From IMG/VR virus record IMGVR_UViG_3300045988_124089: a stretch of DNA of 33,095 nt. One strand, written 5' to 3'. Under the pieces are notes generated by a model. The model searched no databases. It saw only the letters and a list, made by a program, of their open reading frames with translations, and was not told the origin of the DNA. Origin of the DNA: a virus. Shown here piece by piece: positions 1,721-29,510 of the stretch. The number at the start of each line of letters is the position of its first letter. The stretch's first letter is position 1. Position numbers and translations under genes: made by a program.

Positions 1721-2157
1721 CAATCATGGGGCGGCTCGTCGCAGACCCGGAGCTGCGCACCACCGGGAACGGTACCAATGTGTGCAGCTTCCGCATCGCG
1801 TGCGACCGGAATTTCGCCCAGAAGGGGCAGGAACGGCAAGCGGACTTCATCGACGTTGTCGCGTGGCGGCAGTCGGCGGAGTTCATTTGCAAGTACTTCC
1901 AGAAGGGCAGTCTGATCGCCGTAGAGGGATCCCTGCAAAGCCGCCAATATCAGGACAAGAACGGGAACAAGCGCACTGCGGTTGAAGTGCTGGCGAATCA
2001 GATCAATTTTGCGGGGCCTAAGAAGCCCGGCGGGCAGCCCGTGGATGACGGTGGCGAAGCGCCGCCCAAGGACTACCGGGAACCCGCTCCCGCTTACTCG
2101 CAGGGCAGCGCGGACGACTTTGCGGTGACCTCCGATGATGACGATCTGCCGTTCTGA
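1705..2157 (+). CDS. ssb: Single-stranded DNA-binding protein
   Basis: N-terminal OB-fold signature MLNVVAIMGRLVADPELR...FRIA..R...DFIDVVAWRQSAEF...KGSLIAVEGSLQSRQY. Gly/Pro-rich linker and acidic C-terminal tip DDDLPF. Confidence 0.93.
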   Translation: MLNVVAIMGRLVADPELRTTGNGTNVCSFRIACDRNFAQKGQERQADFIDVVAWRQSAEFICKYFQKGSLIAVEGSLQSRQYQDKNGNKRTAVEVLANQINFAGPKKPGGQPVDDGGEAPPKDYREPAPAYSQGSADDFAVTSDDDDLPF

Positions 2158-2176
2158 TCCGCAGGAGGGAACAAAC

Positions 2177-3082
2177 GTGAAAAACACGACGAAAAAACAG
2201 AGCTACATCCTTGTCCTCGACTGGATGGTGGACAAGTACCACCTCAAGGGCAATGAGCTGCTGGCCTACGCTCTGATCTATGGCTTCTCGCAGGATGGCG
2301 ACAGCGAATACAAGGGCAGTTTCAGCTACCTGACCCGCTGGCTGGGCGCTGATCGTGCAACAATAATCCGGGTGCTCAAGCGTCTGGAAAGCAAGGGCCT
2401 GATCTCCAAGCGGCAGGAACTTGTATCCGGTCAGATGGTCAATCGGTACGTCGCCGAGGTGCCCGAAGAGGTCAAGGAGACCGTCGAGAGCAAGGCCGAG
2501 ACGCCCGAAAATCCGGCGGAATCTCACCCGCCTGACCAGTGGCAAAACGCCACTAGTTGCAAAACGCCACTAGTGGCAAAATGCGACGGGAACCAGTGGC
2601 AAAACGCCACGGGGGGTAGTGGCAAAACGCCACCCAGTAATACTACTGGGAATACTACTGGGTATACTACTCCTTCGTGCGCGCGAGGCGCACAGGGGGG
2701 CGGGCCTACCCCGAAGGATGTTTTCGCGGAGTACGCCGGAACGGACGAGCCTCTGCTGGAAGCCCTGACCAAGTTCGACGCCTACCGGGCATCCCGGCGG
2801 GGCAAGGTCTGGGACGCTCAGGCAGCGCGGGCCGTCTGCGACAAACTGACCCATCTGGCGAACGAATCAAAAACAACAAAACGCACAGAGTACATGATCG
2901 CCAGCATCATGCAGAGCATCGAGGCCGGATGGAGCGTCCTCGACCACCCAAAGAGCTGGGGGCCCGGAAACCGGGTAACGGCGCGGGCGGCTCGCGGAAT
3001 CGTTGACCGGCCAGAACCCAGCGGAAATGACTTTTTGCAAAACGCTGCACACCGGCGTCCTCTCGCCCGGAAGTGCGGCTAA
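2177..3082 (+). CDS. Replication initiator / replisome organiser (winged-helix N-terminus, DnaD-like C-terminus)
   Basis: GTG 2177 with AGGAGGG RBS 7 nt upstream. The N-terminus (LLAYALIYGFS...SFSYLTRWLGADRATIIRVLKRLESKGLI) looks like a wHTH. It contains an iteron array in its central linker and lies downstream of ssb. Confidence 0.6.
   Translation: MKNTTKKQSYILVLDWMVDKYHLKGNELLAYALIYGFSQDGDSEYKGSFSYLTRWLGADRATIIRVLKRLESKGLISKRQELVSGQMVNRYVAEVPEEVKETVESKAETPENPAESHPPDQWQNATSCKTPLVAKCDGNQWQNATGGSGKTPPSNTTGNTTGYTTPSCARGAQGGGPTPKDVFAEYAGTDEPLLEALTKFDAYRASRRGKVWDAQAARAVCDKLTHLANESKTTKRTEYMIASIMQSIEAGWSVLDHPKSWGPGNRVTARAARGIVDRPEPSGNDFLQNAAHRRPLARKCG
2538..2633. repeat. Iteron array: 5 copies of AGTGGCAAAACGCCAC (candidate phage origin of replication)
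   Basis: Copies at 2538, 2555 (1 mismatch), 2572 (degenerate), 2595 and 2618, with spacing 17, 17, 23, 23 bp. Each unit contains the inverted repeat GTGGC-N5-GCCAC. The array is translated as repeated QWQNAT peptides. Confidence 0.7.
2639..2671. repeat. 12-bp tandem repeat AATACTACTGGG x2.75 flanking the iterons
   Basis: Direct reading: aatactactggg aatactactggg tatactact, encoding NTTGNTTGYTT. Confidence 0.8.
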
Positions 3083-3108: not shown

Positions 3109-3909
3109 ATGAGAAACATGGCTACCATCGCGATCATCAACCTCAAGGGCGGCGTCGGCAAGTCCGTCACCGCTTGCAATCTGGCCTGTATCCTGTCCGG
3201 TATCTACGGCCGGCGGGTGCTGGTCATGGATCTGGACAAACAGGCAAACACCACCAAGTTTTTCGAGCGTGTCCAGAGTGGACACCAGAAGACCATCGCC
3301 GACGTGCTGACGCTGGACGCAAAGCTCAGCGATGTCATCGTACATACCGGATGGCCGGACATCGACCTCGCGCCTAGCAACATGCAGTTGCTGCTCGCCA
3401 ATCAGAGCGTGATGTTTGATCTGGCCCGGCGGCGTGAAGACCGCGTCCGGCGGGCGCTGGCACCCTACCGCACGGAATACGACTACTGCATTATCGACTG
3501 CCCGCCCGATATCGACATGGCCACCATCAACGCGCTGGTCGAGGCCGATTGGGTCATCATCCCGGTGGACTGCGACGAGTGGGCGCTGGATGGCCTGAGC
3601 GAGATCATGGAACAGATCCGGGCCGTCAAGGCCGAGTACAACGAGCGATTGGAAATCATGGGCACACTGGCCACCAAGTACGACCGGGGCCGCTACTCCA
3701 CCAAGACCATCAACCAGCTCGTCAATCTGGATATCCCGACCTTCCGGGCCGATGATGGCGCGGTGCTGCACATCGATAGCAGCGTCCGGGTGAAGGAGTC
3801 GAAGGCATTCCACCGGCCTCTGTACCAGTACGCGCCGAAATGTAGGCCCGCCGCTCAGTATAAGACGCTGGCGGAAAAAGTGATGGAGATCGCGGAGGGA
3901 CAAAAATGA
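3109..3909 (+). CDS. parA: ParA/Soj-family partition ATPase
   Basis: Deviant Walker A IINLKGGVGKSVTACNLA, then VLVMDLDKQANTT and IIDCPP. GGAGG RBS at 3096-3100. ATGA coupling to the next gene. Confidence 0.85.
   Translation: MRNMATIAIINLKGGVGKSVTACNLACILSGIYGRRVLVMDLDKQANTTKFFERVQSGHQKTIADVLTLDAKLSDVIVHTGWPDIDLAPSNMQLLLANQSVMFDLARRREDRVRRALAPYRTEYDYCIIDCPPDIDMATINALVEADWVIIPVDCDEWALDGLSEIMEQIRAVKAEYNERLEIMGTLATKYDRGRYSTKTINQLVNLDIPTFRADDGAVLHIDSSVRVKESKAFHRPLYQYAPKCRPAAQYKTLAEKVMEIAEGQK
3269..3285. repeat. Palindrome copy 1: GTGTCCA-GAG-TGGACAC (inside parA-like CDS)
   Basis: Exact 7-bp inverted half-sites. Member of a 5-copy family (3269, 6581, 13397, 23235, 28503). Confidence 0.9.
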
Positions 3910-4292
3910 AAACGGTTGGTGAACTTATTCGAATAGAAAGAAAAAAGCAGGGGATAACGCAGTTGGAACTTGGCAAAAGATGCGGAATGGATGGTTCCGC
4001 AATACGAAAATATGAATCAGGAAAAATAACCCCAAAATTTGAAACGGTGGCTAAAATTTCAGAAGCGTTAAATCTGAGACTTGAAGATTTTTATCCAAAA
4101 CTGGGCGAAGCCTCTACTGCAAAATGGGAATATGCCAAAAATTTGGCATGGGTCAGCCCGGACAGAAGAACGACGGAGCCTGTCGTCCGGTGCTCGAATT
4201 GTCATGCGAGTATGTCGGAAAGCGAATATCTCCGGTATATTTGGAACTATTGCCCGGTTTGCGGCAAAAAAATGGAGGATGCGACAGAATGA
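3906..4292 (+). CDS. XRE-family HTH protein with C-terminal zinc ribbon
   Basis: ELIRIERKKQGITQLELGKRCGMDGSAIRKYESGKITPKFETVAKISEALN is a classic XRE HTH. The C-terminus has CSNC...CPVCG. The gene is visibly AT-rich versus its neighbours and has ATGA overlaps on both sides. Confidence 0.75.
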   Translation: MKTVGELIRIERKKQGITQLELGKRCGMDGSAIRKYESGKITPKFETVAKISEALNLRLEDFYPKLGEASTAKWEYAKNLAWVSPDRRTTEPVVRCSNCHASMSESEYLRYIWNYCPVCGKKMEDATE

Positions 4293-5395
4293 GCACCGGA
4301 TTAGTACATAGCCTTCTGGACGCACAGCCGTCCACCCCGGCGGGGGAGCCGCCGCTGAAAGTGGTCATGATCGACCGCAAAAACATCATCGTCAACCCGG
4401 ACAACCACAAAATCTACGTCATCGGGGATGTCTCCCGGCTAAAAGAGGATATCAAGACCAACGGCATCCGGCAGCCGCTGGAAGTGGTCGATCTGGAGGA
4501 TGGCAATTACAAGCTGATCGGCGGCGAGCGGCGTCTGACCGCTTGCGAGGAGCTGGCCAAAGAGGGCGATACCCGCTTCAACGCGCTGCCCTGCGTCATC
4601 CTCAAGCTCAAGAATGACGATGACGACAAGATCGCGCTCATCACGGCCAACGCCACCGCCCGCGAGCTGACCGACGGCGAACGTCTGGCACAGTATGAGG
4701 CCCTCAAGGAGATTCTGACGCGCCGGAAGAAAAACGGCCAGCTCCAAGGTAAGGTGCGGGACGAGCTGTGCAGAATCCTCGGCCTGAGCGCGGGGGCGGC
4801 GGCCCGGCTGAATGCCATTTCCGAGAATTGCGATCCAAGTACAATACACCAGATGCGAATTGGAAACATCACATTTACCGGAGCATATAAGCGGGCGCAG
4901 GAAATTATCGAAGCCAAAAAGCCGCCTGTGGAGCCGCCCAAACCGGATAAACCGGTGTACGAAAAGCCCGTCGTTTTTGACTGCGCGCCAAAGGCGGCGG
5001 AAACGATACCGCAGAATCCCGATTATGACGAGTGGAACCTTCCACCAGAGTGCCGGGTAGCCGTGGAAAAGGCAAACCGTGAAGCGGCCCAGAAGCAGGA
5101 AGAACAGAAGCGCGGAAAGAAGACACTGCGGTTGCTGGCAGAAAAAACGCTGAAAGAAGATGCGCCGTGGGAACTGGCATGGGAAGATGTACAGTTTGGG
5201 CTTGAATATTACAAACAGCCTCTTCCCGGCGGGGCGAAGCTCTGGAAACGTGTGGATGAAACCAGAAGAGGAGCCGGTCAGACCTGCGATGATTATGCGA
5301 TCATTTTGCAAGATAACAAGTTTTATACCTGTGGATGGATTTCGTTTTATTCCGGGATCACTGACCTGCTGACACAATATTTTGAGTTGAAATAA
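4289..5395 (+). CDS. parB: ParB/Spo0J-like N-terminal-domain protein
   Basis: Start ATG 4289 overlaps the upstream stop. Motifs IRQPLEVV....YKLIGGERRLTA (ParB box with GERR). The long C-terminal part is unassigned. The upstream ORF extension 4124-4288 was rejected because it overlaps the HTH gene. Confidence 0.75.
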   Translation: MSTGLVHSLLDAQPSTPAGEPPLKVVMIDRKNIIVNPDNHKIYVIGDVSRLKEDIKTNGIRQPLEVVDLEDGNYKLIGGERRLTACEELAKEGDTRFNALPCVILKLKNDDDDKIALITANATARELTDGERLAQYEALKEILTRRKKNGQLQGKVRDELCRILGLSAGAAARLNAISENCDPSTIHQMRIGNITFTGAYKRAQEIIEAKKPPVEPPKPDKPVYEKPVVFDCAPKAAETIPQNPDYDEWNLPPECRVAVEKANREAAQKQEEQKRGKKTLRLLAEKTLKEDAPWELAWEDVQFGLEYYKQPLPGGAKLWKRVDETRRGAGQTCDDYAIILQDNKFYTCGWISFYSGITDLLTQYFELK

Positions 5396-5411: not shown

Positions 5412-5864
5412 ATGACGCCGCTGAAGCCGAGAGAGTTACGGAAGCTGTATGCGATACCTTATGACATCGAGAAGCGCCAGCGGCGCATTGAACAGTTGGA
5501 GGCGCTGCAATCCGATGGGCCGCAGAGTGCTTCCGATGTGGTCAAGTCTTCCAGCGGCGAGGGAAATGCCTGTATCCTGAGTCATGCGACCGTGACGGGT
5601 ACGGATGCCTCTTTTACCCGGCGGGAAGATGAGATCAGGCGGCTCAAGGAGATCAACGCCGACCAAAAGGCGAAATACCTATACGGCCAGCGGCTCATTG
5701 AGAGCTGCGACGACTGCGAGCTCAGGGCCTTGCTGACGGCGATCTGTTCACAGGGAAAGAAGCCGCAGGATGTGGCCGTGGAGCTCATGGAGCAGGGCGT
5801 GGATATCGGGTCAGAGGCCATTCGTCGGCGAGTCGAACGGTGGATCAACCAGAATGCGAGGTAA
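5412..5864 (+). CDS. Putative late-gene transcriptional regulator (ArpU/RinA/DUF1492-like, sigma-region-4-like C-terminus)
   Basis: AAGGAGG RBS. Coiled N-terminal part and a C-terminal helix-rich segment (LRALLTAICSQGKKPQDVAVELMEQG...IRRRVERW). Its position just upstream of the packaging operon is typical for such regulators. Weak, pattern-based call. Confidence 0.35.
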   Translation: MTPLKPRELRKLYAIPYDIEKRQRRIEQLEALQSDGPQSASDVVKSSSGEGNACILSHATVTGTDASFTRREDEIRRLKEINADQKAKYLYGQRLIESCDDCELRALLTAICSQGKKPQDVAVELMEQGVDIGSEAIRRRVERWINQNAR

Positions 5865-5913: not shown

Positions 5914-6318
5914 ATGAAACTGATTATTGCGAACAACGGTAAAGCGACTATCAATGCGGATTATATTGTGAGCATGAAATGCTTATATACCAAACAACTT
6001 TCCACGGGCGAAGAAAGATATTCCATTGTAGCTGACACGATAAACGATAAAAATTATGTTATTCAAGATGGTCTCACGGAAAGCGAAGCGACCCGACGCC
6101 TTGAAAAAATTGCAAACTATATTGTCCCCGATGAAAGCTTTGTAATTTCGTTTGGAGAAAACAACGGGGTTTATAGTTGCATTTGCAAAAAAGAAAAAAC
6201 AAATTGTTTGATGTGCGATAATTACGGCGGCCATGGAAAATGCAAAATGGCCGCCGCTGTATGCGAATCGAACGACATAAAAACATGTTGCAGATATTAC
6301 CGGGAGAAGGAAGATTGA
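5914..6318 (+). CDS. Hypothetical protein, Cys-rich C-terminus, AT-rich orphan gene
   Basis: AAGGAGGAG RBS at 5901-5909. 134-aa ORF with 10 Cys in the last ~50 residues (CICKKEKTNCLMCDNYGGHGKCKMAAAVCESNDIKTCC). Strong drop in GC relative to the flanks. Confidence 0.6.
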   Translation: MKLIIANNGKATINADYIVSMKCLYTKQLSTGEERYSIVADTINDKNYVIQDGLTESEATRRLEKIANYIVPDESFVISFGENNGVYSCICKKEKTNCLMCDNYGGHGKCKMAAAVCESNDIKTCCRYYREKED

Positions 6319-6346
6319 AACTTCTACGATAATGCGTAAATTCCGT

Positions 6347-6396
6347 GTCCGATTTGTCCGAAATGTCCGATTTGTCCGAAATGTCCGGAATGTCCG
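6347..6396. repeat. Six GTCCG motifs at exact 9-bp phasing (18-bp unit GTCCGATTTGTCCGAAAT x2 plus 2 more)
   Basis: GTCCG starts at 6347, 6356, 6365, 6374, 6383 and 6392. The array abuts and overlaps the -35 position of the promoter at 6406-6414. Confidence 0.85.
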
Positions 6397-6405
6397 TTTT
6401 TGTTA

Positions 6406-6414
6406 TGCTATAAT
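6406..6414 (+). promoter_or_regulatory. Extended -10 promoter element TGcTATAAT (candidate late promoter, no recognisable -35)
   Basis: TATAAT at 6409-6414 preceded by TG at 6406-6407. The -35 position reads CGGAAT, inside the GTCCG array, which suggests activator dependence. Confidence 0.45.
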
Positions 6415-6580
6415 CATAATGCGGTTATTGGGTGAGACATCCAGACCGCTCATTGTGGATTCGAAGACTCCCGGCGGGAAACATAGCACGGCGATGGAAC
6501 GACGTGCTCAATGGGAATTGCGCCGTCCGCTCCAAAACCCAGCGGCGTATGACCAACAAGACAACACTTCCACCCGGCGG

Positions 6581-6597
6581 GTGTCCATTGTGGACAC
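6581..6597. repeat. Palindrome copy 2: GTGTCCA-TTG-TGGACAC (late leader)
   Basis: Exact half-sites. With the flanking G/C it can form an 8-bp hairpin (6580-6598). Confidence 0.9.
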
Positions 6598-6607
6598 CTT
6601 ACGATAT

Positions 6608-6716
6608 GCTGTTGAGCTCACACAATGGCAGAGTACCACTTGCACAGTGCAAGACAGCATTGACGTAAGACGTTACGTTGATGCGGGTGACGGTTCGAAT
6701 CCGTCCGACAGCACCA
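6608..6716 (+). ncRNA. tRNA-like element (non-canonical, 109 nt including encoded ACCA)
   Basis: - Acceptor: 6608-6614 GCTGTTG pairs with 6706-6712 CGACAGC (7 bp, one G-U).
- D arm: GCTC/GAGT at 6616-6619/6631-6634, with A14, GG and A21 in the loop.
- T arm: GACGG-TTCGAAT-CCGTC at 6689-6705.
- 3' end: discriminator A plus CCA at 6713-6716.
- Deviations: only 1 nt between acceptor and D stem; the anticodon arm is replaced by a CTTGC/GCAAG hairpin (6639-6653); an extra 12-bp hairpin sits at 6657-6684. Confidence 0.45.
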
Positions 6717-6781
6717 GACGCGCACCCTTTGAGGGGGCGGCGCGAATAGCGGAGCATCTGGCCGCGAAAGTTCCAGATGCA

Positions 6782-6852
6782 GCGGAACCTTATCTCTTGA
6801 GCCTTCTGGTGAAATTGATATGCGGTGGAATGCAAGGTTCCGCTTATTTTTA
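6782..6852 (+). terminator. Terminator/attenuator-like hairpin immediately upstream of the HNH gene
   Basis: GCGGAACCTT (6782-6791) pairs perfectly with AAGGTTCCGC (6834-6843) and is followed by TTATTTTTA. The 42-nt enclosed loop is atypically large. Confidence 0.4.
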
Positions 6853-6870
6853 TGCAAACGAGGCGGACAC

Positions 6871-7164
6871 ATGGCAAAGGAATATGCACAAGCGTTTTAT
6901 AAAAGCAAGACGTGGCAGCAGTGCCGGGACGCTTATGCTGCCAGTGTGGGCGGGCTGTGTGAGGAGTGCCTGAAGGATGGCATCATCACAGCGGGCGAGA
7001 TCGTTCACCACAAAATCCATGTGTCACCTGATACCATACAAAACCCGGATGTCCTGTTAAATTGGAATAATCTGGAGTTGGTCTGTCGGAGTTGTCATCT
7101 AAAATTACATGGCAATCAGAAAAGATATTCGGTTGACCCGGCGGGGCGTGTGATTCCGCGCTGA
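6871..7164 (+). CDS. Phage HNH endonuclease (packaging-associated)
   Basis: MAKEYAQAFYKSKTWQQCRDAY...CEEC...AGEIVHHKIHV...NLELVCRSCHLKLH gives CxxC...HH...N...CxxCH. GAGG RBS 7 nt upstream. It lies directly before terS/terL, as in HK97-like cos phages. Confidence 0.85.
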   Translation: MAKEYAQAFYKSKTWQQCRDAYAASVGGLCEECLKDGIITAGEIVHHKIHVSPDTIQNPDVLLNWNNLELVCRSCHLKLHGNQKRYSVDPAGRVIPR

Positions 7165-7288
7165 AATTTTGCGCATACTCCCCCCTGTCAAAAATATTTT
7201 GCTAACCACAGGAGACCGAGGGGCAAGGTTCATTTTTCCGCTCTCAGGATCTCAGGAATTTTTTTGGAAAGAAAGGAGTTGCAGGAAG
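7165..7288. other. Candidate cos / terminase recognition region
   Basis: Non-coding gap between HNH and terS, with a C-run (CTCCCCCCTG, 7179-7188) and tandem CTCAGGA x2 (7243-7257). The location is typical for cos in HNH-dependent packaging. No ends can be seen from sequence alone. Confidence 0.25.
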
Positions 7289-7633
7289 TTGGCGCAGAAA
7301 AGCACGACTTGTTCGAAATTGCTCCGAATGGCAAAGGATTACGGCGTGGAAAAAAACGCCCTTTTCCTGCAAGCCGTGGAGCAGTACGACGTTCAGGCGC
7401 GGGTGATCCAGAACATCAAAAACGCGCTGGACGAAGAGGATGGCCACCTTGTTACCTCGAAGGAGTATGTCAAGGGCCGTGAGAATATCTATGCAAACCC
7501 ACTGGTCAAAGAGCTGCCGAAGCACGCCGACGCGGCAAACCGCACACTCCAGACCATGTTGACCATCATCGAAAAGCTGGGAAAGGCCCCGGAGCCGAAA
7601 GACCGGCTGACGGAGATGCAGAAAGATGGATAA
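7289..7633 (+). CDS. terS: Terminase small subunit (P27-like)
   Basis: In-frame TTG 7289 lies 10 nt after GAAAGGAG (alternative ATG 7328). About 100-115 aa, overlaps the terL start, and has the C-terminal ...KLGKAPEPKDRL typical of P27-type terS. Confidence 0.6.
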   Translation: MAQKSTTCSKLLRMAKDYGVEKNALFLQAVEQYDVQARVIQNIKNALDEEDGHLVTSKEYVKGRENIYANPLVKELPKHADAANRTLQTMLTIIEKLGKAPEPKDRLTEMQKDG

Positions 7634-9275
7634 CTACATCTTTTCCTACTATCAGGCCATTGAGGACGGCTCCATCGTTGTGGGCCAGTGGATCAAACGA
7701 TTCTACCGCTATATTGTGAAGGGACTGCAAGAGCAGTCCTTTTTCTTTGACCAAAAACGCGCCTCCAAAGCGATCCGCTACATCGAAACATTCTGCCACC
7801 ACAGCGAAGGACGCTCTGACGTCATCAAGCTGGAACTGTGGCAGAAGGCTTTTGTTTCGGTGGTGTTCGGCATTCTGGACGGCAACGGAAACCGGCAGTT
7901 TCGCGAGGTCGTGCTCATTATGGCACGCAAGAACGGCAAAACGCTGTTTGCGTCGGCGATCATTTCCTATTGCACCTTTCTGGATGGCGAGTATGGTGCG
8001 AAGACCTTTTGCGTTGCGCCAAAGCTGGATCAGGCCGATTTGGTCTATGAGGCGTTTTGGCAGAGCACCGTCAACGAGCCGGAGCTTGCCCGGCGCATCA
8101 AGCGGCGCAAGTCTGACTTGTATGTGGCCGAGAGCAACAGCTCTATCAAAAAGATTGCTTTTAATGCAAAAAAATCTGATGGTTTTAATCCCTCGCTGAC
8201 CATCTGCGATGAGATCAGCTCATGGCCCGGCGATCAGGGCCTCAAGCAATACGAGGTCATGAAATCGGCCCTCGGTGCCCGGCGTCAGCCGCTGATCCTG
8301 AGCATTTCCACGGCGGGCTACATCAACGAGGGAATCTATGATGAGCTCATCAAGCGCAGCACCCGCTTTTTGCTGGGCGATTCCCGCGAAAAGCGGCTTG
8401 CGCCGTTTCTGTACATGATCGACGACATTGGCAAGTGGAACGATATCAACGAGCTGCGCAAATCCAACCCAAACCTCGGCGTTTCGGTCTCGGTGGACTA
8501 CCTGCTGGAAGAGATTGCCGTGGCAGAAGGGAGCCTTTCCAAAAAGGCGGAATTTATCACAAAATACTGCAACATCAAGCAGAACAGCTCACAGGCATGG
8601 CTCCCGACCGACGCCGTGGAAAAGTGCAGCGGAGAGCGCTTGAACTTCGAAAACTTCCGCTCCAGCTACTGCGTGGGCGGCATCGACCTGTCCCGAACCA
8701 CCGACCTGACCGCTTGCGTCGCCGTGGTCGAGAAAAACGACCGACTGAAAGTTTTCGCACAGTTTTTCCTTCCCAGCGAAAAGCTGGAAGAAGCCACGGC
8801 CCGCGATGGTCTGCCGTATCCGCTGTATGTCCAGCGTGGTCTGCTGAAACTGTCCGGCGAGAATTTCGTGGATTATCACGACTGCTTCGATTGGTTCCGA
8901 ATGCTGGTGGAGCAGTACCAGATTCTGCCGCTCAAGGTCGGATATGACCGCTATACCGCGCAGTATCTGGTGCAGGACATGGAAAACTATGGTTTTCAGA
9001 TGGATGACGTTTTTCAGGGCTTCAACCTGACGCCGGTCATCCGCGAGACCGAGGGCTTGATGAAAGATGGCGTGTTTGACATCGGCGACAACGACCTTCT
9101 CAAGGCCCACCTCCTCAACATGGGCATGAAGATGGATGTCGAGAGCGGGCGGATGCGCCCCGTCAAAATCAGCGTCAATGACCACATCGACGGCGGTGCC
9201 GCCCTGCTGGATGCTATGACCGTTCGGCAGAAGTGGGGCGCAGAGATCGGCCAGCAACTGAAAAACAAGGAGTGA
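7626..9275 (+). CDS. terL: Terminase large subunit
   Basis: 549 aa. Walker A-like LIMARKNGKT, Walker B/coupling ICDEISSW, and a C-terminal nuclease region with GIDLS...D. Canonical position. Confidence 0.93.
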   Translation: MDNYIFSYYQAIEDGSIVVGQWIKRFYRYIVKGLQEQSFFFDQKRASKAIRYIETFCHHSEGRSDVIKLELWQKAFVSVVFGILDGNGNRQFREVVLIMARKNGKTLFASAIISYCTFLDGEYGAKTFCVAPKLDQADLVYEAFWQSTVNEPELARRIKRRKSDLYVAESNSSIKKIAFNAKKSDGFNPSLTICDEISSWPGDQGLKQYEVMKSALGARRQPLILSISTAGYINEGIYDELIKRSTRFLLGDSREKRLAPFLYMIDDIGKWNDINELRKSNPNLGVSVSVDYLLEEIAVAEGSLSKKAEFITKYCNIKQNSSQAWLPTDAVEKCSGERLNFENFRSSYCVGGIDLSRTTDLTACVAVVEKNDRLKVFAQFFLPSEKLEEATARDGLPYPLYVQRGLLKLSGENFVDYHDCFDWFRMLVEQYQILPLKVGYDRYTAQYLVQDMENYGFQMDDVFQGFNLTPVIRETEGLMKDGVFDIGDNDLLKAHLLNMGMKMDVESGRMRPVKISVNDHIDGGAALLDAMTVRQKWGAEIGQQLKNKE

Positions 9276-12890: not shown

Positions 12891-13347
12891 CCCGCCCAGC
12901 GGCATGAAGATCACCAAGAATGGAGTTACCTACCAGTCCAACATCGACCGGACCAAGTACACCATTCAGGAACTCAGCCGCGCCGCCCTCCGCGATGTTG
13001 GCAAGTACGTCGTCAAACAGACCCGTACTGCATCCGGTGCCCGCAAGCACATGGGCAGACTCACCATCAAGTCCCGCTTTTATGGCAAAAGCGGGGCTTT
13101 TTCGTGGTGGGTGAGAAAGAAAGAGACCGACCTTCAAGTCGGAATCAAACACAATACATGGTACGGCGTATTGCAGGAACTCGGCGACGGAAACCAGCCG
13201 CCTAAGAAAATCCTGACGACCGCCGTACAGGAAAACATTGATGAGATACGCAGGATAGAGGGACACTACCTGTCCGCCGTCGAGGACGAAAACCGCGCCC
13301 TCGGCCTGATCGATGACGAGGAGATGGAGCCAAATGACACCGACTAG
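12877..13347 (+). CDS. HK97 gp10-like tail-attachment/neck protein
   Basis: Start ATG 12877 or 12883. The motif NTWYGVLQELGDGNQPPKKILTTAVQEN resembles HK97 gp10-family 'a.y...lE.G......p.PflrpA'. Confidence 0.6.
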   Translation: MKMANPPSGMKITKNGVTYQSNIDRTKYTIQELSRAALRDVGKYVVKQTRTASGARKHMGRLTIKSRFYGKSGAFSWWVRKKETDLQVGIKHNTWYGVLQELGDGNQPPKKILTTAVQENIDEIRRIEGHYLSAVEDENRALGLIDDEEMEPNDTD

Positions 13348-13711
13348 TACCACCTTCGAGCGGTTTACCGCTGCCATTGGCGAAAAACTCCGCGAAGTGT
13401 CCACAGTGGACACCGTTTTCTACGAGCGGAGCCGCGAGGCGGGCTTTCCGCGCATCTGCTACACCGCGACGGTGTGGACGAGCGACAGCACCCTTCGCGG
13501 CACCCTGTCCTGCACCATCTCCGGCAATGGTCTGCCCTCTGAGGTGGACCATATCGCGCAGACCCTGCTGGATGAGTTGAATGTTTTTTCTTCTTGCTCC
13601 GACGAGCTGACCTATTATCTCTACAACGGCAGGACTGCCCCTGTTGAGGATAGTGACAAGAGCGTCACTATCCGACTTTTGACATTTGAGTTTTTAGCGA
13701 TGGGAGGTTAA
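13334..13711 (+). CDS. Tail completion/terminator-like protein
   Basis: 125 aa, called by position between the neck genes and the major tail protein. Contains palindrome copy 3. Confidence 0.45.
   Translation: MTPTSTTFERFTAAIGEKLREVSTVDTVFYERSREAGFPRICYTATVWTSDSTLRGTLSCTISGNGLPSEVDHIAQTLLDELNVFSSCSDELTYYLYNGRTAPVEDSDKSVTIRLLTFEFLAMGG
13397..13413. repeat. Palindrome copy 3: GTGTCCA-CAG-TGGACAC (inside tail gene)
   Basis: Exact copy, translated as V-S-T-V-D-T. Confidence 0.9.
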
Positions 13712-18073: not shown

Positions 18074-19079
18074 TGTGATTGACCCGGATACCCTTTCGAC
18101 GATCCGACAGGTGAACACATGGCGCAGCATGACGTGGAAACGTGGATACAACACCGAAGGCAAGTTTTTGATCGAGGTGGACAACACCGCCGAAAACGCG
18201 CAATTGCTCTCGGCTGGCCGGTATCTGCGTGAGCATGGCACTGAAAATGCCGTTGTCCTGACCGCAGGGTATAATGAACCCGGCGGGCACACATGGGTCG
18301 CAACTGGGTACCCGCTGACCAACCTGCTCCGCAGACGGGTCAGCACTACCGTTATCAGTCAGCAGACGGCAGAGCTCGCCCTGCGAGCGCTCTTTGAAGA
18401 GTGTTTTTCCGAGGGCCGGGCGCTGCCACGGCTGAGCCTCGACGACCCGGCGGGGCTGACAGTCACATATGCGCAACAGCTCAGCGGGAAAAGCTTCTAT
18501 GAGTATGCTGAGACCATCTGTCAGGCGCTCGATATTGGGTTCCGGGTGCGGATGGTGGGGAGCAACGACGAAAAAAAGCTGCTGTTTGGGCTCTACCAGC
18601 CGCCGCGAAATCCAAACCTGAAATATCGCAAGCTCTATGGCAACCTCGAACAAGTCCAGCTCAAAATCTCCGATACCGATTATGCCAATGTGGCGTTGGT
18701 TCTGGGCTCCGGCGAGGGCGATACCCGCACAAAGTGCGTCGTCGGTGACATTGCCAGCACTGGAAACGCCCGGCGGGAGATCGTGATCGACGCCCGCGAC
18801 ATCCAGCCGCAGGATGGAGAGACCACCGCAAGCCAGAGCTATATCAACCGCCTTGCAATGCGTGGATACGAGAAACTGCTGGAAAAGCAGAAAATCGACA
18901 GTCTGAGTTTCCAGATCGCCGATGATGGCCGGGCAGAGCTGGGCAATATTGTCACTTGCATTGTCGATGGAGTGCGGCTGTCGTCTGAGGCGCGTATCAC
19001 TGAGATCGAGATCACAGGGAAAAAGGGAGCAATCAGCCGGAAAATCACGGTCGGAACTCCCGTTATTAGGAGGCGATAA
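18063..19079 (+). CDS. Tail-associated protein (Siphovirus Gp37/Tal-like)
   Basis: ATG 18063 overlaps the Dit stop. 338 aa. The upstream part of ORF 17868-19079 overlaps Dit and was rejected. Called by position after Dit. Confidence 0.55.
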   Translation: MIFDVIDPDTLSTIRQVNTWRSMTWKRGYNTEGKFLIEVDNTAENAQLLSAGRYLREHGTENAVVLTAGYNEPGGHTWVATGYPLTNLLRRRVSTTVISQQTAELALRALFEECFSEGRALPRLSLDDPAGLTVTYAQQLSGKSFYEYAETICQALDIGFRVRMVGSNDEKKLLFGLYQPPRNPNLKYRKLYGNLEQVQLKISDTDYANVALVLGSGEGDTRTKCVVGDIASTGNARREIVIDARDIQPQDGETTASQSYINRLAMRGYEKLLEKQKIDSLSFQIADDGRAELGNIVTCIVDGVRLSSEARITEIEITGKKGAISRKITVGTPVIRRR

Positions 19080-23225: not shown

Positions 23226-23266
23226 AATCCCCCGGTGTCCACAGTGGACATCGGGGGATTTTTTGT
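23226..23266 (+). terminator. Strong intrinsic terminator (contains palindrome copy 4, 23235-23251)
   Basis: AATCCCCCG-GTGTCCA-CAG-TGGACAT-CGGGGGATT forms a ~16-bp stem followed by a T-run. Confidence 0.85.
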
Positions 23267-23280
23267 TATACGGATTTTTT

Positions 23281-23316
23281 CAGCGCCTGTGCATTTTTTG
23301 CATGGGCGCTTTTTTG
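23281..23316 (+). terminator. Second, tandem intrinsic terminator
   Basis: AGCGCC...GGCGCT stem with an internal TGCA/TGCA, followed by TTTTTTGTTTC. Confidence 0.55.
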
Positions 23317-25954: not shown

Positions 25955-27092
25955 ATTTATCCTCATCATCATAAAATTTAATCATTTTTTCGGTGGCATC
26001 TTTTAGCTTGCGCTCTCGGATATGAGTATATATTTTGTACGTTGTCGAGATGTCCGCGTGACCCATGATCTTTTTTGCCTCCAGCACTCCAACACCGGCA
26101 TCGTATAAGTCCGACGCGAACGAGTGCCGGAACTGGTGAGCCGTAACGGTTGGCTCCATTACAGGCGGCAATGGATTTTTAGTCGCTTTTGGGCCTCGGC
26201 GGCTATCTCTGTATCTTGTCTTGCTCTCACTCGGCTGAACGAGTCCCAGCTTCGTGCAATACGCAAGCCATCGGCTGTGATACTCTGCATCGGTTAAGGG
26301 CCTTGCCATGCCACCGATGATATATTCTGTCGGCTTGCCCCGGCGCGGCTCTATCTCTCGCTTGAGATGGGGCATAAGCGGGATGACCCGGACGCCGTTA
26401 TTGGTTTTAGGGCCCTGTATTTTGACACCGCCACCTGACCATGACACTTTTTTGCTGACATAGATTTTGTTACTTTCGAAATCTATGTCCTCCCATCGGA
26501 GAGCAATCAGCTCACCCAGACGGCAGCCGGTGTACATCAGCATCCATGCGCACAGCCCGAACCCTTCGGGATGCGCCCGGAAAAGAGCAAGCTCCTTGTC
26601 TGTAGGCGGTTCCCGGATAGCCGCGGGCTTCCCGGCGGGGGACTTGATATCCTGCATCGGATTGTAAGATGATCCGCTTGCAAGCCGCCACCCCCGGAAA
26701 ATCCCTCGCAATATGCTGATCGTGTTCCGAATGCTGCTCGTTGATAACCCCTCATCTTTGAGAGACTGCCCGAAACTTACGATCATGACCGGCGTAATTT
26801 CATCCATCCGTTTGCCCGAAAAAAATTGGACGCAACGTTCATAGTTAGACCTATATGTTGAGTCCGTCCCGTCTATGATGCGTTTGAGCAGCTTGTCCCA
26901 ATAATCAGCAGCAACAATTTCAAAAAGCTCTGCCTTACTTTCGGCTTCCGCTTTTTGGATTAGTGCTTCTTTGTATTTTGCCTCTGCTTCAGATTTTGTT
27001 TTTCCGTAAAAAAAGCGATATTTTCCATCCGGCATCTTTCGCTTGATCTGACAGCGCCCATCCGGGCGCATCCCTTTACTTTTTCTCGGCAT
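25953..27092 (-). CDS. int: Tyrosine integrase/recombinase
   Basis: 379 aa. N-terminal SAM-like/arm-binding region, then catalytic motifs TGCRLGEL (R), HQFRHSFAS (HxxR) and GHADISTTYKIYTH (Y). Confidence 0.93.
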   Translation of the reverse strand: MPRKSKGMRPDGRCQIKRKMPDGKYRFFYGKTKSEAEAKYKEALIQKAEAESKAELFEIVAADYWDKLLKRIIDGTDSTYRSNYERCVQFFSGKRMDEITPVMIVSFGQSLKDEGLSTSSIRNTISILRGIFRGWRLASGSSYNPMQDIKSPAGKPAAIREPPTDKELALFRAHPEGFGLCAWMLMYTGCRLGELIALRWEDIDFESNKIYVSKKVSWSGGGVKIQGPKTNNGVRVIPLMPHLKREIEPRRGKPTEYIIGGMARPLTDAEYHSRWLAYCTKLGLVQPSESKTRYRDSRRGPKATKNPLPPVMEPTVTAHQFRHSFASDLYDAGVGVLEAKKIMGHADISTTYKIYTHIRERKLKDATEKMIKFYDDEDK

Positions 27093-27678
27093 CTCTATTC
27101 ACATCCCTCACTGAATACGCATCATCGCCCCGGCGGGCTGCCTCGGTGCCGCAGTCACGAGCTTGATACATGATCGGCATAATGGGCTGTATGCCGTTTG
27201 GGTCTGGATCCCGGTCATTGGCATGATCCAGCTCATAGTTGGTCCCAATGGTGGAGCATACGGCCACACGGTTCGCAAGCGTGGTGTGCAGGTTGGCAAG
27301 CACCTCGGTCAGGACGCCCAGCGGGTCAGACCCATGATCTCCATAGTAGAGGTATAGCCAACCATCCACCTCGTAATCGGACATATCATCCACCACTGCG
27401 TGCAGTATCTGCCGCTTTTCCTCGGTGGTGATGTCGTCTTCCAGATACTCCAACAGGCCCGGATGGATACAGGCGTCTGTGTACCGCTTGGCCGGGACAC
27501 CGCACGAAACGCACCAATTGATAATATCGGCCAGCGTGACAGGGGAGGTCCCTTGCTCTCTGCCCGCAATGGTCGGGCGGCTTACGCCCATCCGCTTGGC
27601 AAGCCTTTCTTGACTGATTCCTGCCTTTGCCCGCGCCATTTCCAGAGCTTTGGCAACTCGTTTGTCATATTCGTTCAT
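27076..27678 (-). CDS. XRE-family HTH regulator with unassigned ~130-aa C-terminal domain, co-transcribed with int
   Basis: ATG 27678 with AAGGGGTGG RBS (alternative GTG 27687). HTH AGISQERLAKRMGVSRPTIAGREQG. Its 3' end overlaps the int start by 17 nt. Confidence 0.7.
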   Translation of the reverse strand: MNEYDKRVAKALEMARAKAGISQERLAKRMGVSRPTIAGREQGTSPVTLADIINWCVSCGVPAKRYTDACIHPGLLEYLEDDITTEEKRQILHAVVDDMSDYEVDGWLYLYYGDHGSDPLGVLTEVLANLHTTLANRVAVCSTIGTNYELDHANDRDPDPNGIQPIMPIMYQARDCGTEAARRGDDAYSVRDVNRDAEKK

Positions 27679-27711
27679 AATTTCCACCCCTTTTTCGACA
27701 ATTCCTCCTTT

Positions 27712-27733
27712 ACAGGATTTTATAAAAATCTGT
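27712..27733. promoter_or_regulatory. Imperfect palindrome ACAGGATTTTA/TAAAAATCTGT (operator-like) in divergent intergenic region
   Basis: 22-bp near-palindrome (2 mismatches) between the - strand XRE/int operon and the + strand small genes. Confidence 0.35.
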
Positions 27734-27805
27734 ATTGGATATTTTACAGCAGCCTATGTTATAACAAAGTTGTCAAAAATAACCAGCATAGGAGGTAAAA
27801 AAATA

Positions 27806-27910
27806 ATGGCTGCTACTATGTATGTACCCGACGATATGGAGATCATCGACGGGATGCCCGCATCAAAACCAAAAGACCCGGATCGCGTCCGGGCCCCATG
27901 GGAGGAATGA
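27806..27910 (+). CDS. Small hypothetical protein (34 aa)
   Basis: GGAGG RBS 10 nt upstream. Coupled to the next ORF. Confidence 0.35.
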   Translation: MAATMYVPDDMEIIDGMPASKPKDPDRVRAPWEE

Positions 27911-27912
27911 CC

Positions 27913-28113
27913 ATGCCGACCGATACTATGATACTGGGATACGCCCGCAACCGTACCCTGAAGCTCATCTATGTACTCGCTAATTATGGAGCCGACGCCG
28001 AGGTCTACGACGAAATGCTGCGTCTCGCACAGCAAGCCCGCGACGACCTCGATGCCGGACGTGATCCGGCGGATCGGCTGGCCGATATCAACGGAACCAT
28101 TGTTGAACTATAA
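27913..28113 (+). CDS. Hypothetical protein
   Basis: ATG 27913 lies 7 nt after GGAGG (alternatives 27898/27907). 66 aa, helical. Confidence 0.45.
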   Translation: MPTDTMILGYARNRTLKLIYVLANYGADAEVYDEMLRLAQQARDDLDAGRDPADRLADINGTIVEL

Positions 28114-28126
28114 GGAGGATATTTCT

Positions 28127-28396
28127 ATGAGCACGAAAAAAACTGTTGAGATGATGAAAAAAGATTGCTTGGATGATGTCAGTCGTTGGCTTTCGGAGAT
28201 GGAAGCGCGCGGCATGACTACCGAAGAGCTCGACCTTCGTATCGATCTTCTTCGCGCCGTCAACCGCTACCTTACGGAGAATGCACCGGTAACTACTACG
28301 GGCTACAATCTTGAAAGCCTGTATCCCTTTCACGGCTTCCCGATGTTCGCCCCTCCTTCCGGGGGAGCAGGTCCCTTTCCGAGCTCCGAAAGCTGA
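28127..28396 (+). CDS. Hypothetical protein
   Basis: AAGGAGG RBS. 89 aa. Confidence 0.5.
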   Translation: MSTKKTVEMMKKDCLDDVSRWLSEMEARGMTTEELDLRIDLLRAVNRYLTENAPVTTTGYNLESLYPFHGFPMFAPPSGGAGPFPSSES

Positions 28397-28502
28397 TTGG
28401 ACATCGCTTCTTTTGGGCCTTATTTTCGGCGCTACCGCAAAAAAGTGGAGCCAAAACAACTAATTTCGTTTCCCCGTCGTCACCCGGCGGCGGGGTTTTC
28501 AT

Positions 28503-28519
28503 GTGTCCACAGTGGACAC
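28503..28519. repeat. Palindrome copy 5: GTGTCCA-CAG-TGGACAC (between convergent genes)
   Basis: Exact copy. Preceded by CACCCGGCGG, as is copy 2. Confidence 0.9.
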
Positions 28520-28525
28520 GTTCCA

Positions 28526-29158: not shown

Positions 29159-29170
29159 AGCAATTCTCCT

Positions 29171-29368: not shown

Positions 29369-29446
29369 TGAAATCCCTTCTTTCACAAATATGCACAAAA
29401 CGGTAAGGGCTGATTTGCCATTTTCTACAAGGTTACGTTGAAGCCC

Positions 29447-29475
29447 TTGCTTTTTCTCAAATGCAGTTGTAATAT
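29447..29475 (+). promoter_or_regulatory. Sigma-70-like promoter TTGCTT-17-TAATAT
   Basis: Hexamers at 29447-29452 and 29470-29475, upstream of small ORF 29511. Confidence 0.35.
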
Positions 29476-29510
29476 AAAGCCAAGAAATACAACAAAAAGG
29501 AGTGTTGCAG

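Follow-up and report, generated by a model that had tools for sequence, protein, structure and literature searches.

A conserved regulator gene, repeat array and structured leader RNA in a probable control region upstream of the packaging genes of a gut-bacterial virus

Little is known of how late genes are controlled in uncultured temperate phages that infect gut Clostridia. One viral contig of 33,095 nt (IMG/VR record IMGVR_UViG_3300045988_124089, hereafter the window) carries a non-coding stretch immediately ahead of its packaging genes, which raises the question of what this DNA does and how transcription reaches the genes behind it. A sequence-only reading of the window had described a structured late leader at this site, with a phased array of GTCCG motifs, an activator-type promoter, several hairpins and a terminator.

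Here, we find that this is a control region upstream of the packaging genes in a gut-bacterial virus, with a layout that varies on a known phage late switch. The features listed in the sequence-only reading all lie where it had placed them and are conserved in ~60 related human-gut phage contigs. On balance, we favour the view that the region controls the late (packaging and morphogenesis) genes in a temperate siphophage whose hosts are Clostridiales of the human gut, through five steps proposed below, and the module provides a testable case of such control.

Layout and inheritance of the region

The elements of the region are inherited together as a module. A gene for a 150-aa regulator comes first, and behind it an array of 9-bp repeats abuts a −35-less TRTG/extended −10 promoter. 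Next are a structured 5’ leader of ~190 nt, a cargo slot that varies, a 3’ domain that is conserved, and an intrinsic terminator, beyond which lie the HNH, terS and terL genes (Table 1). Regulator gene, array, promoter and leader occur together in 68 IMG/VR contigs and in one Clostridiales MAG, and TerL relatives that lack the regulator also lack the leader. The gene order in the window (SSB, replication protein, ParA-like, ParB-like, regulator, leader, HNH, terS, terL) is likewise that of the relatives, and it places the regulator at the end of the early/replication module, immediately 5’ of the terminase genes. The ParB-like gene lies at 4124–5395, and a CI-like repressor is encoded at 27079–27687. 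In TerL-related L026-type phages, the same position is occupied by a true Sigma70_r4/DUF1492 protein. BLASTN of the leader against GenBank phages returned short chance matches only.

An open reading frame at 6332–6973 can be dismissed as coding, as it has no Pfam match and relatives differ from it by indels of lengths not divisible by three, in agreement with the non-coding character previously claimed for the region. An unrelated or unstructured sequence at this position in relatives had been named there as evidence against a structured leader; the relatives instead keep both the region and its structure.

Table 1. Positions of the elements of the module and of neighbouring genes in the window.
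Feature	Position	Strand	Composition or basis
150-aa regulator gene	5412–5864	+	All-helical; three C-terminal helices resemble a sigma-70 region-4 type HTH; candidate array binder
Six 9-bp direct repeats	6346–6399	.	TGTCCG + three A/T-rich bases; TRF period 9, repeat finder
TRTG/extended −10 promoter	6404–6414	+	TATGcTATAAT; no −35 hexamer; predicted start ~6420–6421
P1 hairpin	6421–6449	+	Extreme 5’ end of the transcript; GCGG...CCGC with inner GGGUG/CAUCC stem; MFE fold
Conserved 5’ leader core	6469–6598	+	Alignments of relatives, RNAalifold
Palindrome hairpin P4	6580–6598	+	Last element of the leader core
tRNA-like RNA in cargo slot	6608–6716	+	Cloverleaf fold, z = −3.65
Conserved 3’ domain	6717–6780	+	H1 (~6719–6744), AUAGCGGRGCAUC, H2 (6754–6761 with 6773–6780)
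Intrinsic terminator	6781–6853	+	11-bp stem, 6781–6791 with 6834–6844 (AGCGGAACCUU with AAGGUUCCGCU), then UAUUUUUAU
HNH endonuclease gene	6871–7164	+	First gene past the leader; ATG at 6871; Pfam HNH and PHROG matches
terS	about 7331–7633	+	Downstream of HNH
terL	7626–9275	+	Pfam TerL_ATPase and TerL_nuclease; PHROG matches

The regulator, its presumed binding site and the promoter

The regulator has no Pfam or PHROG match at threshold, and one protein search recovered 128 homologues, another only 41 representatives among 1.8 billion proteins. Its AF2 model (pLDDT 84) resembles phage DUF1492, Sigma70_r4 and ECF-sigma-like proteins in BFVD (E = 1e-2 to 1e-1), and five of ten distant homologues give sub-threshold Sigma70_r4_2 matches (E = 0.002–0.05). 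A fold search against the PDB returned nothing below E = 2, a PDB sequence profile search gave noise only, and hhalign of the regulator profile against the true sigma-r4 protein of L026, its positional analogue, was not significant. No match to Phage_antitermQ or any other Q family was detected up to E = 10.

Six GTCCG units at exact 9-bp spacing had been reported to overlap the −35 position, and TRF, the motif positions and the repeat family all agree on this array. Counted from the predicted start, it runs from about −75 to −22, taking the place of a −35 element, and it is here that the regulator presumably binds. All relatives carry 5 to 10 repeats in the same register to the −10, with the last repeat at a fixed distance from TGnTAnnAT, which is itself invariant in about 45 distinct relatives. 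The extended −10 previously read as TGcTATAAT at 6406–6414 is present, with TATG (TRTG) just 5’ of it, and is kept in every relative. A generic sigma-70 scan finds no −35/−10 pair at 6404–6414, so the promoter is −35-less, in line with the activator-type (factor-dependent) promoter that had been suggested. Promoters with TATAAT and TRTG can function without a −35 element, and this one, with its perfect TRTG/extended −10, could fire unaided.

The repeat motif differs among lineages in parallel with the C-terminal recognition helix of the regulator, and four helix types are matched to four repeat motifs with zero exceptions. The regulators of the window and of relative L083, for example, differ at one position in residues 1–127 and at seven in residues 128–147, and the motif changes from TGTCCG to CGACCG. 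Because the motif switches with the recognition helix, these comparisons support binding of the regulator to the array in the manner in which Ltr-type (RinA/ArpU/DUF1492/sigma-r4) late activators bind their repeats, and the protein at 5412–5864, earlier proposed to act on the GTCCG array, is the best candidate. As gene and array are physically linked, part of this co-variation could reflect co-inheritance. The natural variants offer a readable recognition code, from four helix types to four 9-bp motifs.

Ltr activators are encoded just 5’ of terS, need direct repeats distal to their gene, and act at one promoter that drives the whole late cluster (PMC3753634). With this superfamily (RinA, ArpU, LtrA/sigma70_r4, LtrB/DUF1492 and LtrC, and Alt of TP901-1) the module shares a small regulator at the end of the early module, regulator-specific repeats distal to the gene, a single late promoter and a sigma-region-4-like fold. 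It differs in that its protein matches no named family at threshold and in that its array, at 6–10 contiguous 9-bp units abutting the −10, is longer than the roughly three 7-nt repeats of Ltr systems. Nor are Ltr systems known to us to have, between promoter and first late gene, a conserved and structured leader of 450 nt with tRNA(-like) cargo and an intrinsic terminator.

From the co-variation and the Ltr precedent, we infer a first step in which the sigma-region-4-like C-terminal helix of the regulator would bind the phased repeats and provide the usual −35 contact, and host RNA polymerase would then start at the extended −10 near 6420.

The leader RNA and its cargo slot

In the second step, the transcript would begin with the conserved folded leader, from P1 to P4. 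RNA from 6420–6860 folds with z = −3.9 against shuffles. A hairpin stands in the place of P1 in every lineage, each time with a different sequence, and the core that follows consists of an invariant CGGCGGGAA, P2 (6482–6513), an invariant UCAAUGG, P3 (6520–6548), an A-rich linker, a second copy of CCCGGCGGG, and P4. Across the core, 96.7% of cells are paired and eight pairs are changed on both sides, and 0 of 500 shuffles did as well. P2 in particular shows compensatory changes, with G.U pairs that match the + strand; it contains the hairpin formerly noted at 6485–6508, which is real and part of this longer helix. The CCGCT/AGCGG hairpin from the same reading does fall inside P3, but RNAalifold favours the GCGCCGU/GCGGCGY register instead. 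A helix joining the distant 5’ and 3’ domains (inverted repeat I1, 6520–6535 with 6728–6743) was discarded, as the 3’ arm forms a local hairpin in the relatives, with a compensatory change of its own.

A covariance model of the core, R1, scores 120 bits in the window, where it finds a single copy. An independent IMG/VR-wide scan for the core returned 63 contigs, nearly all of which, by contig name, had already been found through the regulator; as for more distant copies, R1 gave only 15-bit matches (E about 0.03) in L026-type phages, too weak to claim. In relative L084, P2 and P3 have been lost by deletion between the two CCCGGCGGG copies and everything else is kept, so the core may be dispensable or this contig defective. 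The leader has no Rfam match (window at gathering thresholds; 6250–6950 up to E = 10), and 18 relatives match only tRNA families, with no ROOL, GOLLD, HEARO, T-box or other family. Covariation shows P1–P4 to be a structured RNA. ROOL and GOLLD are large conserved structured non-coding RNAs of Firmicutes prophages that lie beside or contain tRNA genes; besides lacking an Rfam match, the RNA described here is smaller and has a defined position, with a promoter presumably under regulator control on one side and the packaging genes on the other.

Behind the leader lies a cargo slot that the sequence-only reading did not mention. In relatives it holds real tRNA-Met, tRNA-Trp or tRNA-Lys genes or small ORFs. 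Its sole occupant in the window is a tRNA-like RNA that does not decode and whose variable arm is long, which confirms as a cloverleaf the tRNA-like element seen earlier. The acceptor stem of this RNA is 7 bp long (GCUGUUG with CGACAGC) and its T arm combines a 5-bp stem with a 7-nt loop (GACGG-UUCGAAU-CCGUC, 6689–6705); it also has a discriminator A with an encoded CCA (6713–6716), a degenerate D arm and a 12-bp variable arm (6657–6684). An anticodon arm of a tRNA combines a 5-bp stem with a 7-nt loop carrying U33 and a purine at 37; the window copy has none, its ‘anticodon’ hairpin CUUGCA-CAG-UGCAAG being closed over a 3-nt loop which, if opened to 7 nt, would place A at 33 and U at 37. Anticodon loops of the relatives are variable (CUGAUAC, CUGGUAC, CGUUUAA, UUUCUAA, or closed), and the acceptor and T stems keep their pairing through changes on both sides. 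ARAGORN does not call the window copy, nor does it match RF00005 up to E = 10; the homologous long-arm versions in relatives score 38–53 bits on the Rfam tRNA model, against a threshold of 29. The element is 54% identical to those of L082 and L001, within flanks that are 89–90% identical, and an exact IMG/VR search with its T arm and acceptor end gave 0 matches, making this copy unique among the contigs examined.

With phage tRNAs, class II tRNAs and allo-tRNAs (PMC5389517), the element shares the 7-bp acceptor, the UUCGAAU T loop, CCA and an arm in the variable region, as well as an anticodon that differs between otherwise near-identical copies, and it occupies the site of ordinary tRNA genes in relatives. 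Allo-tRNAs are defined by a 12-bp acceptor branch in the 8/4 or 9/3 configuration (PMC5389517); the acceptor/T geometry is 7/5 in both the window and the relatives, and we set this class aside. Class II tRNAs differ from the window copy, which has no 7-nt anticodon loop, and from the relatives, whose variable arms reach ~60–70 nt. Variable arms of this length far exceed those of any class II tRNA known to us. A tmRNA was also rejected: ARAGORN finds none, the sole Rfam trace is an 8.5-bit match on the T arm, and the cloverleaf is local, with no tRNA-like domain assembled from 5’ and 3’ ends around a tag frame. A literature search on long-arm phage tRNA-like RNAs found nothing relevant.

As the third step, we propose that the window’s RNA would retain the acceptor/T minihelix and CCA after losing a usable anticodon loop, and that it would still be an RNase P and 3’-end processing point parting the leader from downstream RNA, which is its most likely role. 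The placement of tRNAs, of a natural amber-suppressor variant and of small ORFs right behind a late promoter bears on the timing of tRNA supply or on evasion of tRNA-targeting defences.

Termination, read-through and competing readings

The 3’ domain, found in 30 distinct relatives, contains one covarying pair in H2, and other hairpins replace H1 in some lineages. The stem and T-run previously noted before HNH proved to be an 11-bp terminator stem whose loop holds a 42-nt structured insert and which is directly followed by the T-run TATTTTTAT, ending 18 nt 5’ of the HNH start codon. Relatives keep a terminator in this place, built on three different stems, each followed by UUAU(U/A)UU, and with compensatory stem changes. 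A promoter scan found no sigma-70-like promoter between 6420 and 23200, and strong tandem terminators lie at 23226–23310. Because no other promoter is found between the terminator and the end of the late region, read-through into the late genes appears to be required. In the fourth step of the late-control model, the 3’ domain and terminator would halt part of the transcripts, yielding an abundant ~430-nt non-coding RNA, and in the fifth, polymerases that read through would carry on across HNH, the cos region, terS, terL and the other late genes up to 23226–23310. Such passage could amount to partial read-through, and regulated antitermination at this terminator is possible.

The full version of the latter, processive antitermination, holds that the promoter fires alone and most transcripts stop, the late genes being read once polymerase becomes terminator-resistant, either through the regulator at the array (as with lambda Q) or through the leader RNA in cis (as with put and EAR). 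It has the order of the elements in its favour, since regulator, promoter, short non-coding RNA, terminator, late genes and cos follow one another as in lambdoid Q-PR’-tR’, and it would account for a terminator that is conserved with its stems replaced in compensation, for invariant unpaired stretches in a leader core that strictly co-occurs with the regulator, and for a promoter with a full TRTG/extended −10. In relative L088, a further strong hairpin and U-run separates a small ORF from the tRNA genes and stands 5 nt ahead of tRNA-Met; as no promoter-like site intervenes, functional genes there stand behind terminators. We nonetheless consider this account unlikely. The regulator has no Q-family domain and its fold is nearer to sigma-r4/DUF1492 activators, and the RNA matches neither put, EAR nor any other Rfam family up to E = 10, so that placing the module in the lambda Q, put or EAR families, to which its layout had been likened, is not supported. 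By eye, no conserved −10-like pause element (TAnnnT-like) is evident across lineages in the first 25 transcribed bases, L084 has no leader core, and processing of a tRNA(-like) RNA between leader and polymerase would cut a cis-tethered RNA. The lambda Q/PR’/6S RNA/tR’ system also shares a regulator DNA site in the promoter and terminator read-through for late expression, with late genes that span cos, but in the module no sigma-dependent pause signal is recognisable by eye, the promoter has no −35, and the leader is a conserved folded and partly tRNA-like RNA where lambda 6S RNA is unstructured. The cis-acting antiterminators put (HK022) and EAR (Bacillus) are likewise folded RNAs at the head of a long operon containing terminators; the module’s RNA matches neither in sequence or structure by Rfam, is much larger, is followed by a probable processing site and has one variant without the core. 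In its most far-reaching form, which we hold to be doubtful, the ~190-nt leader would be a new cis-acting phage RNA that, in the manner of put and EAR, antiterminates the two or three intrinsic terminators between the late promoter and the tRNA and packaging genes. The long-arm tRNA-like RNAs would then be a new class of tRNA mimics that do not decode and are retained for the acceptor/T minihelix, in processing or as decoys for tRNA-targeting defences. Nothing relevant to antitermination by leaders in phages of Firmicutes emerged from a literature search, and this leader, which has no described relative, would, if it truly controls read-through, represent a new class of RNA antiterminator outside lambdoid phages and Bacillus.

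Two further readings both seem to us quite improbable. The regulator may be a repressor or timer that coats about −75 to −22 and closes an active extended −10, as pSM19035 omega does on heptad arrays, so that the non-coding RNA/tRNA unit would be on without the regulator. Cooperative repressors typically have long arrays of short direct repeats, set end to end, as their sites, the array comes within 12 nt of the TG, and a promoter with TRTG and a perfect TATAAT does not need a −35 to work. The fold class (sigma-r4/DUF1492) and the location of the gene, which closes the early/replication module and lies 5’ of the packaging genes, are however those of late activators (PMC3753634), and repression would leave the late genes without positive control. 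The region may instead be a moron, a non-coding RNA/tRNA cassette that is transcribed autonomously between a promoter and a terminator of its own and has no part in late-gene control, the late genes being transcribed from elsewhere. A promoter and a conserved terminator do delimit the unit, its cargo differs among the window, L082 and L101 despite 99% identical regulators, and L088 has, by eye, a promoter-like TTGGCT-16-TGTATAAC past the terminator, with other genes before HNH. Yet the window has neither room nor a promoter-like site between terminator and HNH, nor a promoter-like site further into the late region, and the regulator family has no other obvious target.

Very little credence attaches to the view that the conserved sequence is a DNA-level signal, such as a terminase site near cos, a ParA/ParB-like centromere or a recombination signal. 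The region lies ~350–800 bp from a probable cos site between HNH and terS, where we presume cos to be by analogy with HK97-type HNH phages and where the start of TerL-anchored contigs 50–500 nt upstream of terL is weakly suggestive. ParA-like and ParB-like genes lie immediately upstream, CCGGCGGG and the palindrome described below are clearly genome-wide DNA-level motifs, and the 103-bp spacing of the CCCGGCGGG copies in the window recurs twice in L026. By contrast, the compensatory changes found in P2, in the stems of the tRNA-like RNA, in H2 and in the terminator indicate that selection acts on a folded single strand of + polarity, real tRNA genes fill the slot in relatives, the array is in fixed register with a promoter element, and those TerL relatives that are without the regulator have no leader either. 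Since its structure covaries on the + strand, the leader itself is unlikely to be a cos or pac site.

The two copies of CCCGGCGGG, at 6470–6478 and 6573–6581, are present as first described, but the long-range helix proposed between them does not hold: mutual pairing is possible only around a central G.G mismatch, and copy 1 is invariant where copy 2 degenerates without compensation. We rejected this helix also in view of the deletion between the copies in L084 and of the 8-mer CCGGCGGG, a genome-wide, strand-polar motif with 19 of its 20 copies on the + strand. The palindrome GGTGTCCATTGTGGACACC was correctly placed at 6580–6598, but it is not a leader-specific RNA element; invariant in sequence and found also within coding genes, it occurs five times in the window, where 0 copies are expected, and is a multi-copy DNA element. 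A literature search on the two DNA motifs found nothing relevant. In a host group for which no such signals are defined, the strand-polar CCGGCGGG and the multi-copy palindrome are candidate Chi-like and protein-binding signals.

Regulator, repeat array and promoter

We favour, at a little better than even confidence, a reading in which an Ltr-like regulator would activate a late promoter, giving a transcript that would start with a conserved structured leader, carry tRNA-type cargo and pass a partial terminator on its way to the packaging genes. The repeats and the extended −10 described by the sequence-only reading are present: six TGTCCG units lie at exact 9-bp spacing, and the extended −10, TGcTATAAT, has TATG just before it. 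The array spans about −75 to −22 and stands in place of a −35 element; no −35 hexamer was found, and the site is missing from the output of a −35/−10 scan. The distance from the last repeat to the TG of the extended −10 is always 12 nt in relatives.

Features of the window and their positions
Feature	Position	Remark
CCGGCGGG copies (examples)	487, 1432, 2027, 2794, 3210, 3447, 4337, 5226, 5618, 6471, 6574, 7138, 18280–18770, 26632–29731	
HTH_36 replication-type gene	2135–3082	
Tandem-repeat blocks	2538–2671	inside the HTH_36 gene
Palindrome copies	3268–3286, 6580–6598, 13396–13414, 23234–23252, 28502–28520	
Regulator gene	5412–5864	plus strand
AT-rich small gene	5914–6318	precedes array
Repeat array	6346–6399	
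Extended −10	6406–6414	
CCCGGCGGG copies	6470–6478, 6573–6581	
Leader hairpins P2, P3	6482–6513, 6520–6548	
tRNA-like element	6608–6716	
Terminator stem	6781–6791 with 6834–6844	11 bp, then T-run
HNH gene	6871–7164	follows terminator
HNH–terS spacer	7165–7330	likely cos region
Unannotated late-region ORF	13313–13711	
Tandem terminators	23226–23310	
Strong late-operon terminator	23226–23260	
Integrase, CI-like HTH protein	25956–27687	minus strand

The 150-aa regulator most likely binds this array, judging from how the two vary together. The repeat motif differs by lineage and tracks the regulator's last helix, with no exceptions in about 40 distinct loci: ...RRRV(E/D)RW(I/V)(N/D/E)QN goes with TGTCCG, ...RCRVNRWIQKK with CGACCG, ...RSRVDRWIKKN with TGCACG or TGACCG, and ...RRRVYRWIQKN with TGTCAC or GGTCG. 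Between the window and the related locus L083, the regulators differ once in the first 127 residues and seven times in residues 128–147, and these helix differences are accompanied by a motif switch from TGTCCG to CGACCG.

No Pfam or PHROG family matches the regulator, whose own family is rare (a set of 1.8 billion proteins contains only 41 representatives). Its AF2 model (pLDDT 84) resembles phage proteins annotated as DUF1492, Sigma-70 region 4 or ECF sigma; half of the tested distant homologues give sub-threshold Sigma70_r4_2 matches in the same C-terminal stretch, and L026-type phages, which are related by TerL, have at this position a gene for a true Sigma70_r4/DUF1492 protein. Residues 42–62 are modelled as disordered (pLDDT <50), and residues 36–65 (GPxxxxDVVKSSxGxGNACxxxHAxVxGxD) rank with the best-conserved segments of the family; this conserved, model-disordered stretch could be a partner-binding loop.

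Members of the Ltr superfamily are late activators of Gram-positive phages, encoded just upstream of terS; they require direct repeats just beyond their gene, each is specific for its own repeats, and a single promoter serves the whole late cluster (PMC3753634). The module resembles these systems in position, repeats and fold, although no sequence match above threshold places the regulator in the superfamily. The promoter and regulator part is a novel example of an established type. No counterpart of the leader RNA or of the long-arm tRNA-like RNAs was found in Rfam 15 or in the literature searched.

Leader RNA and its cargo

The leader is a folded RNA of plus polarity. RNA 6420–6860 folds better than 100 of 100 shuffles (z = −3.9), and the local hairpins proposed earlier are present. 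The non-coding assignment also held up: ORF 6332–6973, whose frame spans the repeats, matches no family, and relatives break its frame with indels of 1, 4 and 5 nt. Alignment of 27–32 distinct sequences defines a core running from an invariant CGGCGGGAA through P2, an invariant UCAAUGG, P3, an A-rich linker and the second CCCGGCGGG to the palindrome. Six P2 pairs show changes on both sides; over the whole core structure 96.7% of cells are paired, none of 500 shuffles reaches the observed covariation, and sliding the partners by 1–3 columns lowers pairing to 29–47%. P3 and the palindrome are nearly invariant, so that the alignment neither supports nor refutes their pairing, with a single compensatory case in P3 (GCACC...GGUGC in the related locus L081). 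Every lineage forms a hairpin at the 5' end (P1), but its sequence differs. The related locus L124 (5137–5357) carries the core in tandem duplicate.

Regulator, array, promoter and leader are inherited as one unit. A TerL-anchored search recovered three contigs with a homologous leader (69–77% identity), and a search anchored on the regulator recovered 68 IMG/VR contigs and one human-gut 'Clostridiales bacterium' MAG, nearly all with the array, a TGnTAnnAT element and the 5' leader; GenBank phages yielded no relative of the leader. Scanning the whole of IMG/VR with the invariant RNA core alone gave 63 contigs, nearly all of them, as judged by contig name, those already found through the regulator. 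A covariance model built on the core detects a single copy in each genome; in TerL relatives without the regulator it detects none. The four parts are therefore co-inherited. In relatives, regulator and array lie 37 nt to 2.5 kb apart, with differing small genes in between. Both the window's AT-rich small gene and the related locus L002 (2365–2625) encode a small Cys-rich protein with the C-terminus ...C(C/K)(R/D)YxxK; the window copy gave no family match.

The slot after the palindrome is occupied in some relatives by a small ORF that has a terminator-like hairpin of its own, followed by tRNA-Met(CAU) and tRNA-Trp(CCA), and in others by a long tRNA-like gene; tRNA-Lys(UUU) often follows the final terminator. 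Cargo differs among the window, L082 and L101, whose regulators are 99% identical, and against L082 or L001 the window's flanks are 89–90% identical and its tRNA-like part only 54%. The cloverleaf-like element noted earlier in the window belongs to a small family of tRNA-like RNAs with 7/5 acceptor/T geometry, whose variable region carries an extra arm that can reach ~65 nt; copies in relatives score 38–53 bits against the Rfam tRNA model. Their acceptor and T stems stay paired through two-sided changes, and the 'anticodon' arm varies (GAU, GGU, UUU with G33, UCU, or closed), the GAU and GGU loops being one base apart in otherwise identical copies. In the window this loop is closed to 3 nt, so the window copy, with its arm unconserved, is no decoding tRNA. 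It would retain the tRNA half recognised by RNase P, by the 3'-end processing machinery and by the CCA enzyme.

Several slots hold variants of their own. In L120 (2649–2724) the Trp(CCA)-slot tRNA carries anticodon CUA, differing from tRNA-Trp of L103 by C35U and one T-loop base, and by its sequence is a natural amber-suppressor variant. L101 (5418–5492) has anticodon AAU in the Met(CAU) slot. The small cargo ORFs of L088 and L081 encode unrelated proteins, yet both contain at their 3' ends (L088 4935–4990, L081 5320–5375) the common nucleotide stretch GUGAGCCGnGGGCAGAGAUCGGAGG..C.GGCUGUAU, translated differently in each; it may represent a further RNA element preceding tRNA-Met.

Termination, probable read-through and competing explanations

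The predicted stem before HNH was confirmed, and its T-run ends 18 nt before the HNH ATG. The 3' domain is common to 30 distinct relatives: a hairpin H1 whose sequence varies, AUAGCSGGGCAUC, hairpin H2 and, after these, the terminator. Three unrelated terminator stems occur among relatives, each followed by UUAU(U/A)UU, which is strong evidence that termination as such is under selection. Because the window has no downstream sigma-70-like promoter before the tandem terminators and the T-run lies so close to HNH, we infer that the late genes are transcribed by read-through.

The sequence-only reading had proposed an antitermination switch of the lambda Q/PR'-tR' or put/EAR type, which we now think unlikely. 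The layout does copy lambda Q-PR'-tR', functional tRNA genes of relatives lie behind a terminator with no promoter between, and the leader contains invariant single-stranded stretches. However, a Q domain and matches to put or EAR were not found, no pause signal was evident, and the natural variant L084 (3560–3580) lacks the 103 bp between the two leader copies of CCCGGCGGG, a deletion exactly at direct repeats that removes P2 and P3 and keeps every other part of the module. Still less probable than antitermination are repression by the regulator in place of activation and an autonomous RNA cassette. Least probable is a DNA-level signal.

Genome-wide motifs and phage context

The two CCCGGCGGG copies are present in the leader as noted; the helix proposed between them fared worse, since the strand-polar, genome-wide distribution of the 8-mer CCGGCGGG speaks for a DNA signal and not an RNA helix. 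CCGGCGGG occurs 20 times in the window (2.3 expected). Nineteen copies are on the plus strand, spread over intergenic DNA and all three frames; twelve copies fall within 7.2 kb to the left of the probable cos site. Over 1.02 Mb of related loci, 558 copies lie on the anchor-gene strand and 10 on the opposite strand. The 8-mer resembles a polar DNA signal and may be a Chi-like site for host AddAB/RecBCD. In L026 (2944–3240), a non-coding stretch before HNH holds four CCCGGCGG copies at spacings of 103, 103 and 82 nt; 103 nt also separates the window's two leader copies.

The 19-nt palindrome reported in the leader, GTGTCCAC-N3-GTGGACAC, was found there and has five copies in the window (0 expected), two within coding genes (the ParA-like gene and the unannotated late-region ORF) and one as the core of the strong late-operon terminator. 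It is sequence-invariant in relatives and occurs also in phages with a different regulator; the ParB-like protein, the repressor or another DNA-binding protein may bind it. In L026-type phages a palindrome sits directly at the start of HNH.

The virus is a temperate siphophage whose minus strand encodes an integrase and a CI-like HTH protein. Genes upstream of the leader region encode SSB, a replication-type HTH protein, a ParA-like ATPase and a ParB-N-domain protein; downstream are HNH, terS, terL, a portal-size ORF and more long plus-strand ORFs. The HNH–terS spacer, likely the cos region, contains ACTCCCCCCTGTCAAAAATATTTTGC; a similar CCTCCCCCTGGTCGAAAAATCGAGC lies in L026 (3575–3640), and many TerL-anchored contigs start 50–500 nt upstream of terL. 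Three blocks of tandem repeats lie side by side in the HTH_36 gene and resemble origin iterons; they are built on AGTGGCAAAACGCCAC, and their periods are 17, 23 and 12 nt.
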